Source of the DNA: Escherichia phage FL23 | DNA length: 64,000 nucleotides | Direction: 5' to 3' (one strand) | Sequence record: PP400787 | Shown: positions 18,213-26,618 of the stretch, in pieces | Numbering within the stretch: position 1 is the stretch's first letter | Layout: each line of letters begins with the position of its first letter | Made by a program: the position numbers and the translations under genes | Notes under the pieces: generated by a model | The model's input: only the letters and a program-made list of their open reading frames with translations | Told to the model about the DNA's origin: nothing | The model's database searches: none

Positions 18213-19228
18213 TAATTGAGGCCTGAGTATAAGGTGACTTATACTTGTAATCTATCTAAACGGGGAACCTCTCTAGTAGACAATCCCGTGCTAAATTGTA
18301 GGACTGCCCTTTAATAAATACTTCTATATTTAAAGAGGTATTTATGAAAAGCGGAATTTATCAGATTAAAAATACTTTAAACAATAAAGTATATGTAGGA
18401 AGTGCTAAAGATTTTGAAAAGAGATGGAAGAGGCATTTTAAAGATTTAGAAAAAGGATGCCATTCTTCTATAAAGCTTCAGAGGTCTTTTAACAAACATG
18501 GTAATGTGTTTGAATGTTCTATTTTGGAAGAAATTCCATATGAGAAAGATTTGATTATTGAACGAGAAAATTTTTGGATTAAAGAGCTTAATTCTAAAAT
18601 TAATGGATACAATATTGCTGATGCAACGTTTGGTGATACATGTTCTACGCATCCATTAAAAGAAGAAATTATTAAGAAACGTTCTGAAACTGTTAAAGCT
18701 AAGATGCTTAAACTTGGACCTGATGGTCGGAAAGCTCTTTACAGTAAACCCGGAAGTAAAAACGGGCGTTGGAATCCAGAAACCCATAAGTTTTGTAAGT
18801 GCGGTGTTCGCATACAAACTTCTGCTTATACTTGTAGTAAATGCAGAAATCGTTCAGGTGAAAATAATTCATTCTTTAATCATAAGCATTCAGACATAAC
18901 TAAATCTAAAATATCAGAAAAGATGAAAGGTAAAAAGCCTAGTAATATTAAAAAGATTTCATGTGATGGGGTTATTTTTGATTGTGCAGCAGATGCAGCT
19001 AGACATTTTAAAATTTCGTCTGGATTAGTTACTTATCGTGTAAAATCTGATAAATGGAATTGGTTCTACATAAATGCCTAACGACTATCCCTTTGGGGAG
19101 TAGGGTCAAGTGACTCGAAACGATAGACAACTTGCTTTAACAAGTTGGAGATATAGTCTGATCTGCATGGTGACATGCAGCTGGATATAATTCCGGGGTA
19201 AGATTAACGACCTTATCTGAACATAATG
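18213..19228 (+). mobile_element. group I self-splicing intron in td (1016 nt) carrying I-TevI
   Basis: P1/IGS gcctgag pairs with exon end cttgggt; core motifs gtagggtcaagtgactcgaaa and atatagtctgatctgcat; ends ...ctgaacataatg. Confidence 0.9.
18344..19081 (+). CDS. I-TevI: I-TevI GIY-YIG homing endonuclease (intron ORF)
   Basis: 245 aa; GIYQIKNTLNNKVYVGSAKDFEKRWKRH; C-terminal Zn finger and DNA-binding domain. Confidence 0.9.
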   Translation: MKSGIYQIKNTLNNKVYVGSAKDFEKRWKRHFKDLEKGCHSSIKLQRSFNKHGNVFECSILEEIPYEKDLIIERENFWIKELNSKINGYNIADATFGDTCSTHPLKEEIIKKRSETVKAKMLKLGPDGRKALYSKPGSKNGRWNPETHKFCKCGVRIQTSAYTCSKCRNRSGENNSFFNHKHSDITKSKISEKMKGKKPSNIKKISCDGVIFDCAADAARHFKISSGLVTYRVKSDKWNWFYINA

Positions 19229-19800: not shown

Positions 19801-20080
19801 ATATAAATCCGACTTTGATGTTAATATTCACCGTGGTACATTTTGGGGAAATTACGTCGGTAAAGATGCTGGCAGCCGGGAGGCTGCCATTGAATTATTC
19901 AAAAAAGATTTTATACGTCGAATTAAATCCGGAGAAATAACTAAAGCACATTTAGAGCCTTTACGTGGAATGAGGCTAGGATGCACATGTAAACCAAAGC
20001 CGTGTCATGGTGATATAATAGCTCATATAGTTAACCGATTGTTTAAAGACGATTTTCAAGTTGAGGACTTATGCAATTAA
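19754..20080 (+). CDS. DUF4326-like protein (C-terminal [12 protein letters not shown] signature)
   Basis: Motif recognition: WGNY... and L.C.C.P..CHGD; overlaps upstream ORF by 47 nt. Confidence 0.5.
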
Positions 20081-21504
20081 TTAATGTTATCAAAAGTAGT
20101 GGTGTTTCTCAGAGCTTTGACCCGCAAAAAATTATTAAAGTTTTATCTTGGGCAGCTGAGGGAACATCAGTAGATCCTTATGAATTATATGAAAATATTA
20201 AATCATATCTCCGTGATGGAATGACCACTGATGATATTCAGACTATTGTCATTAAGGCCGCTGCGAATTCTATTTCGGTTGAAGAACCTGATTATCAATA
20301 TGTAGCTGCACGCTGTTTAATGTTTGCTCTTCGTAAGCATGTTTATGGGCAGTATGAACCACGTTCATTTATTGACCATATTTCTTACTGTGTAAATGAA
20401 GGTAAATATGACCCTGAATTATTGTCAAAATATTCAGCAGAAGAAATTACATTTTTAGAATCAAAAATTAAGCACGAACGGGATATGGAATTTACTTATT
20501 CCGGGGCGATGCAATTAAAAGAAAAATATCTAGTTAAAGATAAAACCACTGGTCAAATTTATGAAACTCCGCAGTTTGCATTTATGACTATTGGAATGGC
20601 ACTGCATCAAGATGAACCTGTTGACAGATTAAAACATGTTATTCGTTTTTATGAAGCAGTATCTACTCGACAGATTTCACTGCCAACTCCTATTATGGCT
20701 GGTTGCCGTACTCCAACTCGACAGTTTAGTTCATGCGTTGTTATTGAAGCAGGTGATTCGCTGAAGTCTATCAATAAGGCTTCTGCTTCAATTGTTGAGT
20801 ATATTTCTAAACGAGCTGGAATTGGCATTAACGTTGGTATGATTCGTGCTGAAGGTTCTAAGATTGGCACAGGTGAAGTGCGTCATACTGGCGTTATTCC
20901 TTTTTGGAAACATTTTCAGACTGCTGTTAAATCATGCTCACAGGGTGGAATTCGTGGCGGCGCTGCTACTGCTTATTATCCTATTTGGCATTTGGAAGTT
21001 GAAAATCTTCTCGTTTTGAAAAATAACAAAGGCGTAGAAGAAAACCGTATCCGTCATATGGATTATGGCGTCCAGCTGAATGATTTGATGATGGAACGTT
21101 TTGGAAAGAACGACTACATCACTTTGTTCAGTCCACATGAAATGGGTGGCGAACTTTATTATTCTTATTTTAAAGACCAAGACCGTTTCCGTGAATTGTA
21201 CGAAGCAGCAGAAAAAGACCCTAATATTCGTAAAAAGCGTATTAAAGCTCGTGAACTATTTGAATTGCTCATGACTGAACGTTCAGGAACAGCAAGGATT
21301 TATGTACAGTTCATTGATAATACGAATAACTATACTCCGTTTATTCGTGAAAAGGCGCCTATTCGTCAGAGTAACTTGTGCTGTGAAATTGCTATTCCAA
21401 CAAATGATGTGAATAGCCAACAAACCCGTTTAATCAAAATTAAGAAGTCGGATGTAGCTAAGTTTTATGAAGCTAATCCTGGCGGTATAATTCAAAGCAA
21501 ATAA
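20071..21504 (+). CDS. nrdA: ribonucleotide reductase large subunit, N-terminal piece (nrdA-a)
   Basis: ATP-cone; FSSCVVIE (Cys225 equivalent); SNLCCEIAIPT (Asn/Cys/Glu active site); then 28 non-conserved codons to stop. Confidence 0.85.
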   Translation: MQLINVIKSSGVSQSFDPQKIIKVLSWAAEGTSVDPYELYENIKSYLRDGMTTDDIQTIVIKAAANSISVEEPDYQYVAARCLMFALRKHVYGQYEPRSFIDHISYCVNEGKYDPELLSKYSAEEITFLESKIKHERDMEFTYSGAMQLKEKYLVKDKTTGQIYETPQFAFMTIGMALHQDEPVDRLKHVIRFYEAVSTRQISLPTPIMAGCRTPTRQFSSCVVIEAGDSLKSINKASASIVEYISKRAGIGINVGMIRAEGSKIGTGEVRHTGVIPFWKHFQTAVKSCSQGGIRGGAATAYYPIWHLEVENLLVLKNNKGVEENRIRHMDYGVQLNDLMMERFGKNDYITLFSPHEMGGELYYSYFKDQDRFRELYEAAEKDPNIRKKRIKARELFELLMTERSGTARIYVQFIDNTNNYTPFIREKAPIRQSNLCCEIAIPTNDVNSQQTRLIKIKKSDVAKFYEANPGGIIQSK

Positions 21505-21549
21505 AGTACACAGACCGTTAATAAATAATCCATAACAAGAGGAAAAGTT

Positions 21550-22260
21550 ATGGATTATTTTAAAATTTACAATAACCTTATTTCTAAAGCTAAGAATAGA
21601 AAATTAGATTGCTATACCGAATCACACCATATTATACCTCTGTGTATTGGTGGTTCTGATACAAAGGAAAACCTGGTAGATTTGACACCAGAAGAGCATT
21701 ACATAGCTCATCAATTATTAGTAAAGATATATCCAGATAATCATAAATTGATATTTGCCGCTAATATGATGTGTGTTTATTCTAAAGATAATATTGAACG
21801 AAAGAACACCAATAAACGCCATGGGTGGCTTAGAAGAAAATTGGCTATTTCTGTATCTGAAAATAATAAAGGCAAACCAGCTTGGAACAAAGGTATTCCT
21901 ATGTCTCCAGAAGTTAAATCTCGACTTCAAACATCTTGGGTGTTTACATTTCCGGATGGTCATGAGGAAATTCATCGAGGTCTTAACGAATTTTGTAAAG
22001 AGCATAATTTAAATCCATCTGCAATGTCAGCCGTTTGTAAAGGTAAACGGTCGCATCACAAAGGATTTAAGTGTAAGAAATTGGATAAGATTTCAGAGCT
22101 TGATAATTTAGTTTTCGTCAGTAAACCTCATCCAAAGGGATTAAAACCCCATAACTTAATTGCTGTAAAAATAAACGGTATAGAATATCAATCAATACAT
22201 CGAGCATCTAAAGCTTTAGGAATTACTAGAAAAAAGGTAGAAGAATTAAATGAATATTGA
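21550..22260 (+). CDS. HNH homing endonuclease inserted within nrdA (MobE-like)
   Basis: CYTESHHIIPLCIGGSDTKENLVDLTPEEHYIAH HNH motif; SD GAGGA; stop overlaps nrdA-b start. Confidence 0.8.
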   Translation: MDYFKIYNNLISKAKNRKLDCYTESHHIIPLCIGGSDTKENLVDLTPEEHYIAHQLLVKIYPDNHKLIFAANMMCVYSKDNIERKNTNKRHGWLRRKLAISVSENNKGKPAWNKGIPMSPEVKSRLQTSWVFTFPDGHEEIHRGLNEFCKEHNLNPSAMSAVCKGKRSHHKGFKCKKLDKISELDNLVFVSKPHPKGLKPHNLIAVKINGIEYQSIHRASKALGITRKKVEELNEY

Positions 22261-23239
22261 TTATGAATTTGTAGATGAATTTTACGAAGATGATGAGTAT
22301 ACTACAATAAAAGTTATTGAAAACAAGGGAGAAGTGGGGCTTTGTACTCTCTCTGCATTCGTACTAGATAATTTTGACTGGCAAGACCAAGATAAAATTA
22401 ATGAATTGGCAGAAGTTCAAGTTCGTGCTCTTGATAATCTTTTGGATTACCAAGGATATCCAGTTCCTGAAGCAGAAAAAGCTAAAAAGCGTCGTAACCT
22501 TGGTGTAGGTGTTACTAACTATGCAGCTTGGCTGGCAAGTAACTTTGCTTCTTATGAAGATGCTAACGATTTAACACATGAACTATTTGAGAGATTACAG
22601 TATGGACTCATTAAAGCATCCATTAAGCTCGCCAAAGAAAAAGGACCTTGCGAATATTATTCAGACACTCGTTGGTCTCGAGGCGAACTACCTATCGACT
22701 GGTACAATAAAAAGATTGACCAAATCGCAGCTCCAAAATACGTTTGTGACTGGTCGTCGCTGCGGGAAGACCTTAAGCTCTTTGGCATCCGTAATAGCAC
22801 ATTATCAGCACTTATGCCATGTGAGTCATCTTCCCAAGTTTCTAACAGTACAAACGGTATCGAGCCTCCACGTGGACCGGTAAGTGTTAAAGAATCAAAA
22901 GAGGGTTCATTTAATCAAGTTGTTCCGAATATTGAGCATAACATAGACCTTTACGACTATACATGGAAATTAGCTAAGAAAGGTAATAAACCTTATCTTA
23001 CGCAGGTAGCTATTATGCTGAAATGGGTATGTCAATCGGCTTCAGCGAATACATATTATGACCCACAGATTTTTCCAAAAGGAAAGGTTCCAATGTCAAT
23101 AATGATTGATGATATGCTATACGGATGGTATTATGGCATTAAAAATTTCTATTATCATAATACCCGCGATGGTTCTGGTACTGATGATTATGAAATAGAA
23201 ACTCCAAAAGCAGATGATTGTTCATCCTGTAAATTATGA
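22250..23239 (+). CDS. nrdA: ribonucleotide reductase large subunit, C-terminal piece (nrdA-b)
   Basis: Own ATG; resumes at GLCTLSAF (second active-site Cys) and runs to the C-terminal DDCSSCKL redox tail. Confidence 0.85.
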   Translation: MNIDYEFVDEFYEDDEYTTIKVIENKGEVGLCTLSAFVLDNFDWQDQDKINELAEVQVRALDNLLDYQGYPVPEAEKAKKRRNLGVGVTNYAAWLASNFASYEDANDLTHELFERLQYGLIKASIKLAKEKGPCEYYSDTRWSRGELPIDWYNKKIDQIAAPKYVCDWSSLREDLKLFGIRNSTLSALMPCESSSQVSNSTNGIEPPRGPVSVKESKEGSFNQVVPNIEHNIDLYDYTWKLAKKGNKPYLTQVAIMLKWVCQSASANTYYDPQIFPKGKVPMSIMIDDMLYGWYYGIKNFYYHNTRDGSGTDDYEIETPKADDCSSCKL

Positions 23240-24848
23240 TATAATTACCACAAGGATGTGGTTAACTAAGAATAACGCTATGTTTGATAATATATACAAA
23301 AACGGAAAGTTTCTTCCATTTGGAGAAGAAAAACTTAAATCTAGACTAACAGAAGAAGATAAAGCTCTTCTAACTGATGGAATAGATTTTAAGCTCAATG
23401 TGTTCCAAATTATGGAAGGCATTGACATTAACGATCTAAAATGTGCAGTTTGTGGAAATTTCATTTCTCTGAAAACGGCAAAGAAACGTGTATTTCCAGC
23501 AACATGTAGTAAATCCTGCGCAGGGATATTTTTCGCGGATAAGAGAATTCAAAGCCGTGATACAAATTTTGGCGGAAAAGAAAAATATAAAAAATATTTG
23601 TCTGAACTTCAACGCAAAAATTCTTTAGAAAAATATGGAACAACTCATCAAAAAATTTCAAGAAATAAAAATAGAAAAACTTTAATTGAACGATATGGGG
23701 TAACGCATAATTCACAATTAGAAAGTGTGAAAGAAGCGAGAAAAGTTATAGAAAACGGTAAATCAGTTGATATTCTGAATTCTAGAAAATCTCGCGAAAA
23801 ATCTAAGAAGACTAAATTAAATTGGACTGAAGAATATAAGGCATCGTTATATTCATCTATAGGAAAATCTATTAAAAATAACGGTCATATTAATCATGAT
23901 ATACTAGATAAAATCAATTACAAAATTTCTATAGAAGAACTACAACAATTAGCAAATTGTTCTCGGATGACGGCTTATAGAGCTCTTTCATCCAAAGGAC
24001 TAATTGACGTTCATTATACTCAAAGTTCTATAGAGCAATTCATTTTAGATCTAGGATTTGATTGCGTAGAAACTAGAAAAATTATTCCTCCGTATGAATT
24101 AGATATTTACATTCCTGAGAAAAAATTGGCTATAGAATACGATGGAATTTATTGGCATTCTAGCGGGTCAAAGGAAACAGATAAAATTAAAGAAACTTAT
24201 CATTTGATGAAGACAGAGATGTGTGAAGCACAAGGAATTCAATTACTTCACATCTTCGAAAATGAATGGATTGATGATACAAAAAGAGAGATCTGGAAAT
24301 CCATTATAAAGCATAAATTAGGATTATCAGAAAGAATACCAGCCCGAAAATGCAAAGCGCGTTTTGTTAATAAGGATGAGGCAAAAGAATTTATTAATAA
24401 GAATCATCTTCAAGGATTTTGCTCGGGAGCTCATACGTATAAAGGACTTTATTACAATAATGAGTTAGTTCAAATTATTTCTATCGGTAAATCTAGATAT
24501 AGCTCAGGTGATGAACTTTTAAGGATGTGTTCAAAATTAGGGATTTGTGTTGTAGGAGGAGCCTCAAAATTATTAAAAGGAATTAATTGTCTATCTTATG
24601 GCAATCGAAGATGGTGCAGTACATTATCAAATGTTTATGACTCTGTCATGGAATTTAGTCATATCTCTGAGCCGTGTTATTGGTATGTCGATAAAGGAGA
24701 GGTATTTCACCGCTCGAGCTATATGAAACATAAGCTTAAAAACAAGCTTAAAAATTATGATGATACAATAACTGAAGTAGAAAATTGTTATGCAAATGGT
24801 CTTAGAAGAATCTGGGACTGTGGAAATTTAGTTTACAGGACAAAATAA
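23214..24848 (+). CDS. large multi-domain putative nuclease (Zn ribbon, repeated YG(T/V)TH motifs, Vsr/DUF559-like core, C-terminal domain)
   Basis: CAVCGN...CSKSC; EKYGTTHQ/ERYGVTHNSQ repeats; LAIEYDGIYWH...LLHIFENEW; start ambiguous (23214, 23256 or 23280). Confidence 0.55.
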   Translation: MIVHPVNYDIITTRMWLTKNNAMFDNIYKNGKFLPFGEEKLKSRLTEEDKALLTDGIDFKLNVFQIMEGIDINDLKCAVCGNFISLKTAKKRVFPATCSKSCAGIFFADKRIQSRDTNFGGKEKYKKYLSELQRKNSLEKYGTTHQKISRNKNRKTLIERYGVTHNSQLESVKEARKVIENGKSVDILNSRKSREKSKKTKLNWTEEYKASLYSSIGKSIKNNGHINHDILDKINYKISIEELQQLANCSRMTAYRALSSKGLIDVHYTQSSIEQFILDLGFDCVETRKIIPPYELDIYIPEKKLAIEYDGIYWHSSGSKETDKIKETYHLMKTEMCEAQGIQLLHIFENEWIDDTKREIWKSIIKHKLGLSERIPARKCKARFVNKDEAKEFINKNHLQGFCSGAHTYKGLYYNNELVQIISIGKSRYSSGDELLRMCSKLGICVVGGASKLLKGINCLSYGNRRWCSTLSNVYDSVMEFSHISEPCYWYVDKGEVFHRSSYMKHKLKNKLKNYDDTITEVENCYANGLRRIWDCGNLVYRTK

Positions 24849-25523
24849 TGAGTACAGTTTTTAATACTAAACAGGTCGATGTTTTAAAAGAACCTATGTT
24901 TTTTGGTTCAGGTCTTGGTATTGCGCGTTATGATATTCAACGGCATCGAGTATTTGAAGAACTTATTGAACGTCAGCTCTCGTTTTTCTGGCGTCCTGAA
25001 GAAGTAAACTTGATGATGGATGCTGCACAGTTTAATAAGCTTCCTCAGTATCAACAAAATATTTTTACTAATAATCTGAAGTATCAATCATTACTTGATA
25101 GTATTCAAGGTCGTGCGCCGTCTGCTGTACTTATGCCATTGCTTTCAGACCCAAGCCTTGATACATGGGTTGCTACATGGACTTTTAGTGAAACTATTCA
25201 CAGTCGTTCATATACTCATATCATGCGAAATCTTTATACTGATCCGTCAAAGGTATTTGATGAGATTGTATTAGATGAAGCTATTATGAAACGTGCTGAA
25301 TCTATCGGTCGTTATTATGATGATGTTCTGACTAAAACCCGTGAATGGGAAAATGCTAAAGAATTTGTAGAACTAGCTAAAGAATCTCCTGATGCCGACT
25401 TTCGTTTAAACCGAGCTATTAAACAAGAAGCCGAAGCTAAACGTGCTTTAATGAAATCTCTTTACCTCTGTTTGCACGTTATTAATGCCTTAGAAGCTAT
25501 TCGTTTTTATGTATCTTTTGCGT
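24848..25523 (+). CDS. nrdB: ribonucleotide reductase small subunit, exon 1
   Basis: LKEPMFFG...RYD...QLSFFWRPEEV...WAFSETIHSRSYTHI...FYVSFA; 5' splice site inferred after gcgt (P1 gcgu/gcgc). Confidence 0.8.
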
Positions 25524-26115
25524 AAAATGCGCCTTTAAACGGTAACGTTTATCGAAAACTCCTTTAATTGCTGGAAAGTCCTTTATAGGAAAACTAGCAG
25601 CCAAGGTTTTGCTTGCACCTTTAATTAGTATAATATGATTATACTTTTAAGAGGATGCACAATTGAACTATAGAAAAATTTGGATAGATGCTAACGGACC
25701 TACCTAAAGATTCTGATGGAAGACCATAAGAAAAGAACATCAGCAAAAACATTAGAAATGGTTAAGAATGGGACCCATCCTGCACAAAAAGAAATCACAT
25801 GTGATTTCTGCGGTCACATTGGTAAAGGTCCTGGATTTTATCTAAAACATAATGACAGATGTAAATTAAATCCAAATAGAATTCAATTGAATTGTCCATA
25901 TTGTGATAAGAAAGATTTATCACCATCAACATATAAACGATGGCACGGCGACAATTGCAAAGCAAGGTTCAACGACTAGTCTTCGGACGTAGGGTCAAGC
26001 GACTCGAAATGGGGAGAATCCCTCTGGGATTGTGATATAGTCTGGTCTGCATAGTAATATGTAGCAGTTCATAAGAGAACGGGTTGAGAATTAGCGAGCT
26101 CAATCGAACATAACG
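25524..26115 (+). mobile_element. group I intron in nrdB (about 592 nt; boundaries inferred, +/- a few nt)
   Basis: Core motifs gtagggtcaagcgactcgaaa and atatagtctggtctgcat shared with the td intron; splice restores FYVSFA-C-TFNF...MEGNAKIM. Confidence 0.75.
25716..25979 (+). CDS. intron ORF, likely a truncated I-TevIII-like endonuclease remnant (Zn-finger region only, 87 aa)
   Basis: CDFCGH...CPYCDK...WHGDNCKARF; no complete HNH/GIY-YIG catalytic motif seen. Confidence 0.55.
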   Translation: MEDHKKRTSAKTLEMVKNGTHPAQKEITCDFCGHIGKGPGFYLKHNDRCKLNPNRIQLNCPYCDKKDLSPSTYKRWHGDNCKARFND

Positions 26116-26618
26116 GTACCTTTAACTTCCATAAAAACATGGAAATCATGGAAGGTAATGCCAAGATTATGAAGTTCATTGCACGTGATGAGCAGCTTCA
26201 TCTTAAAGGTACACAATATATTATTCGTCAACTTCAATCTGGTACTGATGGCGATGAATGGGTTAAAATTGCTCAAGAGTGCGAGCAAGAAGCAGTTGAT
26301 ATTTTCATGGAAGTTAACCGCCAAGAAAAAGATTGGGCAGTTCATTTATTTAAAGATGGCGATGTTCCTGGATTAAATACAAATAGCATGTGGAGCTTTA
26401 TTGATTACTTAACTGTATCTCGTATGAAACAGTGTGGTCTTCCATGCCCAATTACCGATGCTCCGGTTAAACACCCATATCCTTGGATTCGTGAATATCT
26501 TAATTCTGATAATGTTCAATCCGCGCCACAAGAAGTAGAACTGTCATCTTACCTTGTTGCGCAGATTGATAATGATGTTGATGATAAAGTTATGATGAGT
26601 TTTAAAAAATACTTTTAA
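26116..26618 (+). CDS. nrdB: ribonucleotide reductase small subunit, exon 2
   Basis: ...MEGNAKIMKFIARDEQLHLKGTQ...SSYLVAQID; aligns with class Ia NrdB C-terminus. Confidence 0.8.

Follow-up and report, generated by a model that had tools for sequence, protein, structure and literature searches.

A hef gene, probably encoding a Vsr-like homing endonuclease with a Mom-like C-terminal domain, between nrdA and nrdB of Escherichia phage FL23

An intact open reading frame between nrdA and nrdB

The window analysed here is the whole 64,000-nucleotide stretch of Escherichia phage FL23 (record PP400787), in which the ORF map shows the gap between nrdA and nrdB to be wholly filled by one gene, hef. The ORF listing gives an uninterrupted frame of 544 codons plus stop on the plus strand (23214..24848), a free-standing homing endonuclease ORF whose ATG start overlaps the 3′ end of nrdA by 26 nt and whose TAA overlaps the nrdB ATG in a TAATG junction. 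A sequence-only reading of this DNA had described one long ORF at this position, which the listing confirms, and every motif quoted in it was located in the translation: C77-x2-C80…C98-x3-C102, EKYGTTH (aa 139–145), ERYGVTH (aa 159–165), LAIEYDGIYWH (aa 305–315) and LLHIFENEW (aa 344–352). In T4, the nrdA–nrdB gap carries nrdA.1, nrdA.2 and mobE.

The true start of hef is uncertain and could be either ATG 23214, the hef start in the GenBank record of phage U5, or the in-frame ATG 23280 (M23, plus strand), the RefSeq start for phage SG1. Close Hef homologs are 519–522 aa long and their alignment covers 95–96% of the query. The AF2 model of the whole protein has a mean pLDDT of 93, with values below 50 at aa 1–9 and 11–16.

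The combination of a nuclease with a C-terminal GNAT domain could resemble two genes fused by an assembly or sequencing error, an explanation for which no other support was found and which we consider scarcely credible. The full-length ORF is uninterrupted in 16 independently sequenced phage records at 99.3–100% identity, and homologs of 450–600 aa keep a conserved motif order (Zn-ribbon cysteines, nuclease, GNAT) that is common to proteins at 33–75% identity. Furthermore, almost all of the best 150 matches to the GNAT domain have it at the C-terminus of proteins of 450–770 aa. A chance ORF is thus excluded by the 16 records and the motif order of the homologs, as is the frameshift fusion that the sequence-only reading had itself raised; the GNAT-domain context also led us to reject the latter.

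A scan of positions 22800–25200 for promoters and terminators was uninformative: it gave 14 promoter-like sites, where 10.9 were expected, and no terminators.

Identity and spread of hef

Judged by its sequence, the 544-codon gene of FL23 is the already known hef. Its product is identical to U5 Hef (ABI48935.1) at 538 of 544 residues, with six substitutions and no gaps, the DNA identity to U5 hef is 99.3%, and Escherichia phage FL44 is a 100% match to the window at hef. The full length of the protein is matched by PHROG 3339 “homing endonuclease” (E 7e-152), and the PADLOC HEase model matches it too, while no NCBIfam family was found at E ≤ 1. The gene was reportedly first described in the T4-like phage U5 by Sandegren, Nord and Sjoberg (NAR 2005), in whose study Hef is said to have cut both the DNA of its own phage and hef-less DNA in vitro. 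A review passage citing that study describes U5 Hef as an nrdB-cleaving endonuclease (PMC2988022), and Hef-type enzymes were assigned to the Vsr-like EDxHD homing endonuclease family, defined in 2011 (PMC3239194). The earlier proposal of a free-standing multi-domain endonuclease unlike mobE of T4 is therefore upheld by 99% identity to an annotated homing endonuclease, but its architecture is not novel in being “different, larger”, since the family was named in 2005 and given its EDxHD placement in 2011 (PMC3239194, PMC2988022). As a gene call, such a near-identical copy is of small import. It is of use for annotation, as many GenBank records, including that of FL44, call hef a “hypothetical protein”.

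The FL23 and U5 genes are alike in their length of 544 aa, their position between nrdA and nrdB, and their overlaps with both neighbours (AY262133.2); hef is free-standing there, in place of mobE, in the U5 record and also in the contexts of SG1 and Yersinia phage phiR1-RT. The two phages differ in background, as nrdA in FL23 is split by an HNH gene, and nrdB spans ~1.77 kb (24848–26618) in FL23 compared with the 2,259 nt recorded for U5, a difference that points to a shorter nrdB intron in FL23. At the nrdA split, Rfam gave no group I intron signal at E ≤ 1, whereas the td and nrdB introns were detected.

Besides the 16 records with hef, 373 other phage records showed a match confined to the 31-nt nrdA tail, a patchy spread as expected of a mobile gene. 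The phiR1-RT ortholog, 65% identical and also located between nrdA and nrdB, suggests long residence of hef at this site. Other family members occur elsewhere, including, in phage RPN226, a 47%-identical paralog flanked by two capsid genes of the Gp23 family. In total, Hef-like genes were found at 959 places distributed over 407 phage records, a single genome having as many as 10–11 copies, and multiple copies per genome are typical of selfish endonuclease genes. Within the window, tblastn found no further Hef paralogs.

Domain architecture of the Hef protein

All domains are given in plus-strand coordinates. A small alpha/beta region at aa 23–75 (23280..23438), which AF2 models as short strands and helices (block-mean pLDDT 86–97) and which has no Pfam match, precedes the Zn ribbon C77-x2-C80…C98-x3-C102 (23442..23519). 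The Cys-rich ribbon pointed out in the sequence-only reading stands, its four cysteines being kept in 86–88 of 88 homologs, with C98 invariant and C77, C80 and C102 at least 90% conserved. Zinc-finger models (YacG, Zn_ribbon_8 or DUF4379) match single homologs.

The two YG(T/V)TH repeats lie in a basic helical region, aa 108–223 (23535..23882), modelled by AF2 as long helices at aa 108–161 and 191–223. DUF7487 matches 53 of the 88 homologs (best E 2.2e-48), and FL23 Hef itself gives a sub-threshold match to it (E 0.0078 at aa 109–174). Hence the tandem repeats are present, helical and DUF7487-like, but a kinship with NUMOD or AP2 modules was rejected for lack of any such Pfam match at E ≤ 1. 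NUMOD1, NUMOD3 and NUMOD4 gave no match to Hef at E ≤ 1 and none to its N-terminal half at E ≤ 0.1, in a scan that, as a positive control, did give NUMOD-type matches for the I-TevI and HNH ORFs nearby. From the architecture, the repeat region is presumed to bind DNA. Three short AF2 helices at aa 228–260 (23895..23993) may form a helix-turn-helix, hinted at by a weak HTH_11 match (E 0.13, aa 236–258) and by HTH models that match a few homologs.

The central domain, aa 268–368 (24015..24317), is a Vsr-like nuclease of EDxHD type within the PD-(D/E)xK superfamily. The Vsr/DUF559-like core seen in the sequence-only reading was borne out, both by the Vsr-like variant of the PD-(D/E)xK fold and by D297 and H315, which are invariant in the 88 homologs and align with the catalytic I-Bth D196/Vsr D51 and H213/H69, respectively. 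Invariant residues of the Hef family also include E308, H330, K333, H346 and E351. Two further motif residues are the first Glu (I-Bth E170) and the last Asp (I-Bth D222). I-Bth E170 lies outside the alignment, with E295, E308 and E351 as candidates among the conserved acidic residues, and D323 is two positions off I-Bth D222 in the phmmer alignment and gapped in ~22 distant homologs. PHROG 559, which matches aa 75–542, is labelled “HNH endonuclease”; this appears to be a misnomer for Hef, which has no HNH Pfam match and no HNH fold. Compared with I-Bth0305I (PDB 3R3P; Taylor et al. 2011, PMC3239194), an intron-encoded enzyme of 266 aa with NUMOD-type N-terminal motifs and a C-terminal nuclease, Hef comes from a free-standing gene, has double the length, replaces NUMOD by a Zn ribbon and DUF7487-type repeats, and carries an extra domain after the nuclease.

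This last domain, aa 373–544 (24330..24845), has a Mom-like GNAT fold. It comprises the C-terminal region of ~200 aa in which the sequence-only reading had recognised no motif, and the closest solved structure to these ~170 residues is Mom of phage Mu (PDB 8BV8). Of the Mom residues, H58, R111, R151 and Y159 have counterparts in 83–88 of 88 Hef homologs, and H183 has one in FL23 Hef too. R111 corresponds to R437 (87/88) and R151 to R466 (88/88), as hhalign and MAFFT agree, and both arginines are essential in Mom (PMC13219725). Other positions are less well preserved. S124 is also essential in Mom, and an Ala mutant of D149 has greatly reduced activity (PMC13219725). D149 aligns to Hef N464, which is Asn in 71 and Asp in 17 of the 88 homologs, while the alignments disagree over S124, placed in a gap by hhalign and opposite I444 by MAFFT. 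Neither alignment puts S124 at S451, a near-invariant residue that begins the next helix and is a candidate from its spacing alone. Hef lacks counterparts of Mom Y59, W181 and W48, the last a dimerisation residue, and is 11 residues shorter than Mom between the positions matching R111 and D149. AF2 places helices at aa 500–527, where Mom has an essential HTH-like insertion.

The Pfam Mom model (PF25680) does not match FL23 Hef, but matches 18 of the 88 homologs at E < 0.01; scanned singly, homologs P0053 and P0115 score 30.1 and 28.3 bits (cut-off 27.1). The domain family comprises 13,360 cluster representatives, and the domain in Hef is under strong purifying selection. Mu Mom, a dimeric enzyme of ~240 aa that stands alone, modifies adenine at N6 in a Gly-tRNA-dependent manner (PMC13219725), whereas the Hef domain is fused to a nuclease and has Asn at the D149 position and, in the sequence alignments, no clear S124 counterpart. 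The residual value of the FL23 gene lies in this domain, a Mom-like GNAT fold with most Mom active-site residues in a homing endonuclease reportedly validated by experiment. As the Gly-tRNA-dependent adenine modification carried out by Mom has been worked out only in recent years, the role of the domain in Hef is now directly testable.

Homing and the possible role of the Mom-like domain

Taken together, the FL23 gene very probably encodes a free-standing Hef, a homing endonuclease of the Vsr-like EDxHD family residing in the nrdA–nrdB gap. From its architecture, DNA would be bound by the Zn ribbon, the DUF7487-type repeats and a probable helix-turn-helix, and the Vsr-like domain, through catalytic Asp297 and His315 together with further invariant histidines and acidic residues, would cut near the hef locus. 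The cut site would be in nrdB, as reported for U5 in the review passage cited above (PMC2988022). On the model of MobE and the Seg enzymes, when a hef-less relative infects the same cell, its broken DNA would be mended by recombination with the genome that carries hef, so that hef and flanking markers, plausibly with the nrdB intron among them, would be copied over. Cleavage and homing of the FL23 allele, which differs from U5 Hef by its six substitutions, are extrapolated from the U5 literature. MobE of T4 shares the nrdA–nrdB intergenic site and the target nrdB (PMC2988022) and also mobilises the neighbouring nrdB intron (PMC2790892), but it is a small HNH enzyme, a protein unrelated to Hef.

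Degeneration is common among free-standing endonuclease genes, and the T4 nrdB intron holds an example of such a remnant in its truncated I-TevIII. With its uncertain start codon, hef might likewise persist as a decayed or domesticated gene that no longer encodes an active endonuclease. This is very improbable, as the ORF is intact over its full length with 99% identity to the U5 prototype, all family-invariant residues of both the nuclease and the GNAT domain are present, and neither the mean AF2 pLDDT of 93 nor the near-identity across the 16 records suggests decay.

In a homing endonuclease, the Mom-like domain would most likely be an extra DNA-engaging module, possibly base-flipping, rather than a genome-wide modifier; this is the least secure step of the proposed mechanism, and a purely DNA-binding role leaves the near-complete retention of the Mom active site unexplained. 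Alternatively, the domain could be an active, glycyl-tRNA-dependent adenine-N6 acylating enzyme which marks the phage's own DNA, leaving the nuclease to attack unmarked host or co-infecting phage DNA, in addition to or in place of classical homing. Iyer et al. (2021) proposed the same on computational grounds for T4-related jumbo phages, in which Mom domains and REase-fold nucleases are fused (PMC7824862), and the closeness to the Mom structure, the four widely conserved active-site counterparts and the helices at the place of the HTH-like insertion are in its favour. Nonetheless, we regard this restriction-modification-like function as quite unlikely given the predominance of Asn at the D149 position, the ambiguous S124 counterpart in both alignments and the loss of the Y59, W181 and W48 counterparts. 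Moreover, up to 10–11 divergent copies per genome at different loci fit a selfish endonuclease better than a genome-protecting modification, and the reported in vitro cutting by Hef of DNA from its own phage, and not only of hef-less DNA, also speaks against this function.

That the domain is a working DNA-adenine acylating enzyme at all, possibly dependent on aminoacyl-tRNA as Mu Mom is, is unlikely but conceivable. If true, the family would be homing endonucleases that fuse a nuclease to a DNA-modifying enzyme; the target site in the phage's own genome could be marked against self-cleavage, or DNA could be marked otherwise, and N6-carbamoylmethyl-adenine or a related mark would be predicted in T4-like phage DNA. 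The Mom-REase fusions of jumbo phages have the same domain combination as Hef, and were read as restriction-modification pairs in a paper that brings in neither Hef nor homing (PMC7824862), whereas the U5 data point to homing-endonuclease behaviour. Among the papers searched, none linked Mom-nuclease fusions with Hef, and working acylation would join the literature on the “Hef homing endonuclease” to that on “Mom-REase restriction-modification”. Five Hef-like places were seen in each of Cassandra and Paride, two Pseudomonas phages that we take to be relatives of the jumbo phage PA5oct, presumably matching the number in that phage. In PA5oct, “five momylating enzymes” were counted (PMC7824862).

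The hef gene and its relatives

A single ORF of 544 aa with an ATG start lies at 23214–24848 (+), between nrdA and nrdB as the sequence-only reading had claimed, and all four motifs quoted there are present: C77-x2-C80...C98-x3-C102, two YG(T/V)TH repeats (aa 139–145 and 159–165), LAIEYDGIYWH (aa 305–315) and LLHIFENEW (aa 344–352). The gene leaves no DNA unused between nrdA and nrdB: it begins with an ATG and overlaps the 3' end of nrdA by 26 nt, while its TAA stop and the nrdB ATG have one base in common (TAATG). Its GC content (0.29–0.33) is slightly lower than that of the flanking nrd genes (0.34–0.41). The surroundings are T4-like: a td intron that encodes I-TevI, nrdA divided into two ORFs by an HNH gene, hef, an nrdB that contains a group I intron, a denA-like GIY-YIG gene and rnlA.

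In a megablast search of 50,697 phage records, complete hef was detected in 16 (99.3–100% identity; 100% in Escherichia phage FL44), while 373 other matching records contained only a 31-nt nrdA tail, hence the presence of hef is sporadic even among very close relatives. The 16 include GenBank AY262133.2 (‘Bacteriophage U5 NrdA, Hef and NrdB’), whose annotation of the ORF reads ‘hef: Hef, homing endonuclease’. The two proteins align without gaps and are identical at 538 of 544 positions, which supports the initial reading of a free-standing multi-domain nuclease; the gene is thus already known, being a near-copy (99% identical) of a homing endonuclease that has been named and studied experimentally. 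Furthermore, a match to PHROG 3339 ‘homing endonuclease’ (E 7e-152) covers the whole protein. A frameshift fusion of two genes, also raised in that reading, was ruled out: the ORF recurs in independently sequenced phages, and of more than 1,855 homologs the 87 aligned keep one motif order, down to 33% identity. Database labels vary within the family (hypothetical protein, HNH endonuclease, endonuclease, nuclease/acetyltransferase, Hef-like), one GenBank record naming a homolog ‘putative nuclease/acetyltransferase protein’.

The true start codon is uncertain, with two in-frame ATGs at 23214 (GenBank U5) and 23280 (M23; RefSeq SG1), and no clear GGAG-type Shine-Dalgarno sequence was found upstream of either. 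Close homologs are 519–522 aa long, their alignments covering 95–96% of the query.

Domain architecture and the Vsr-like nuclease

An AlphaFold2 model built from 88 sequences (mean pLDDT 93, with only residues 1–9 and 11–16 poor, at pLDDT <50) and conservation across these homologs divide Hef into six parts. A small alpha/beta region (aa ~23–75) without a Pfam match is followed by the predicted Cys-rich Zn ribbon (aa 77–102), each of its four cysteines being kept in 86–88 of 88 homologs, then a basic helical region with the YG(T/V)TH repeats (aa 108–223) and three short helices with weak HTH matches (aa 228–260). The repeats had been likened to DNA-binding modules of homing endonucleases, with NUMOD and AP2-like models suggested as a check; the repeats stand, but neither model matched Hef in the Pfam scan. 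The NUMOD negative is meaningful because the neighbouring I-TevI and HNH ORFs gave NUMOD-type hits in the same scan. Instead, DUF7487 matched this region in homologs (53/88, best E 2.2e-48), with Hef of the window itself sub-threshold (E 0.0078).

The fifth part (aa 268–368) is a Vsr-like nuclease, confirming the proposed Vsr/DUF559-like core, with matches to DUF559 (E 0.011), MTES_1575 (E 1.5e-4), the PADLOC HEase model (E 3.4e-5) and, by phmmer, 3r3p, the structure of the homing endonuclease I-Bth0305I (E 0.03); structure comparison also places it here. In the phmmer alignment D297 pairs with catalytic D196 of I-Bth0305I (Vsr D51), D310 with N208 (Vsr H64) and H315 with H213 (Vsr H69), and D297, E308, H315, H330, K333, H346 and E351 are invariant across the 88 homologs. 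The family is already classified as Vsr-like: the ‘EDxHD’ homing endonucleases defined around I-Bth0305I explicitly include ‘bacteriophage Hef type homing endonucleases’ (Taylor et al. 2011, PMC3239194), and Hef-like genes are routinely tallied as a homing endonuclease gene class in T4-related genomes (PMC2993671; PMC3296691). That hef is a decayed remnant is very improbable, given 99% identity to U5, the invariant residues and the confident model.

A Mom-like C-terminal domain

The remaining part (aa 373–544), left unassigned in the sequence-only reading, has a GNAT fold, and among solved structures phage Mu Mom is the closest to it. PDB 8bv8 (Mom) ranked top in Foldseek against PDB (E 2.5e-6), and hhalign, comparing the Hef C-terminal alignment with one of 51 Mom sequences, gave a probability of 91.9% (E 7e-7). 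The Pfam Mom model matched 18 of 88 homologs and did not match Hef of the window. Searched alone, the domain matched 13,360 cluster representatives (E<=0.001), and nearly all of the top 150 matches are proteins of 450–770 aa that have it at their C-terminus; this, with the same ORF in 16 records, makes an assembly artefact a negligible prospect.

Mom attaches glycine, taken from Gly-tRNA(Gly), to the adenine N6 of double-stranded DNA. Its essential residues are R111, S124 and R151; D149A strongly lowers activity, H58, Y59, Y159, W48 and W181 play important roles, and the enzyme requires an HTH-like insertion (~175–209) (PMC13219725). Residue pairs agreed between hhalign and a joint MAFFT alignment, except for W48 (MAFFT only). 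Mom H58 corresponds to Hef H398 (86/88 homologs), R111 to R437 (87/88), R151 to R466 (88/88), Y159 to Y475 (83/88) and H183 to H499 (His in 50 of 88), whereas Y59 (L399), W181 (V497) and W48 (D388) are not kept. The alignments differ on S124; near-invariant S451, the first residue of the helix after strand beta-4, is a candidate by GNAT topology only, since the R437–S451 spacing is 14 residues versus 13 for R111–S124. In the model, helices at aa 500–527 stand where Mom has its HTH-like insertion. D149 corresponds to N464 (Asn in 71, Asp in 17 of 88), Asn occurring in all closer homologs (~38% identity and up) and Asp in the 17 more distant members. This column points to a clade-specific alteration of the GNAT pocket, which might separate catalytic from non-catalytic versions.

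The Hef family is very large, and its validated prototype bears a Mom-like domain with most Mom active-site residues; as Mom chemistry is known, the function of the domain is now testable. The domain could be the restriction-modification partner of the nuclease, partly overlapping with homing, and the set of Arg, His and Tyr residues that it has kept fits this. Such a role is unlikely, however, as Asn occupies the D149 position in this clade, Y59, W181 and W48 have no counterparts, the genes are distributed in a multi-copy, selfish manner, and Hef reportedly cuts its own phage's DNA in vitro. Tentatively, we regard the domain as an added DNA-engaging module rather than a genome-wide modifier.

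The Mom link had partly been made before: Iyer et al. read a Mom-nuclease fusion as a restriction-modification pair, citing five ‘momylating enzymes’ in phage PA5oct without mention of Hef (PMC7824862). The two papers on the mechanism of Mom are silent on nuclease fusions, and our literature search found no paper bringing Hef, Mom and homing together. As the Pseudomonas jumbo phages Cassandra and Paride have five Hef-like places each (tblastn), and assuming their kinship to PA5oct, we infer that the Hef family and these fusions are one protein family seen from two sides.

Probable homing and the neighbouring nrd and td genes

We consider hef very probably a free-standing homing endonuclease gene. 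This is supported by Yersinia phage phiR1-RT, which has a 65%-identical ortholog likewise placed between nrdA and nrdB, by phage RPN226, where two Gp23-family capsid genes flank a 47%-identical paralog, and by 959 Hef-like places in 407 phage records (tblastn). Campylobacter phages CP30A, CP39, F360 and Los1 have 10–11 copies per genome. In work from 2005, U5 Hef reportedly cut DNA close to its own locus and acted on both hef-containing and hef-less phage DNA, and its homing is reported to have been regarded as likely but not demonstrated. DNA binding would fall to the N-terminal Zn ribbon, repeats and HTH, and cutting near the locus, in nrdB (PMC2988022), to the Vsr-like domain; in mixed infection, recombinational repair would then spread hef with flanking markers, by analogy with MobE. 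MobE also mobilises the nrdB intron in T4 (PMC2790892), and a Hef cut in nrdB could likewise co-mobilise it.

nrdB (24848–26618) contains a group I intron (Intron_gpI E 8.9e-6, signal 25824–26064), whose ORF (25716–25979) is only 87 aa and Cys-rich and looks like a truncated I-TevIII. nrdB spans ~1.77 kb in the window versus 2,259 nt in the U5 record, hence the same hef allele adjoins different intron versions. nrdA is split into nrdA-a (20071–21504) and nrdA-b (22250–23239) around an HNH and I-HmuI-NUMOD-like endonuclease gene (21550–22260), an arrangement common to 34 phage records; in Salmonella phage SG1, a hef carrier, nrdA is unbroken (CDS 2,265 nt). As no group I intron signal was found across 20071–23239 at E<=1 in a scan that detected the td and nrdB introns, nrdA looks like the genes-in-pieces type described in Aeromonas phage Aeh1 (PMC3045599). 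A further group I intron (E 2.4e-8 at 18950–19180; region 18344–19180) splits the td gene and encodes full-length I-TevI with GIY-YIG, zinc finger and DNA-binding domains, hence the 18–27 kb region carries four endonuclease-type genes plus denA.
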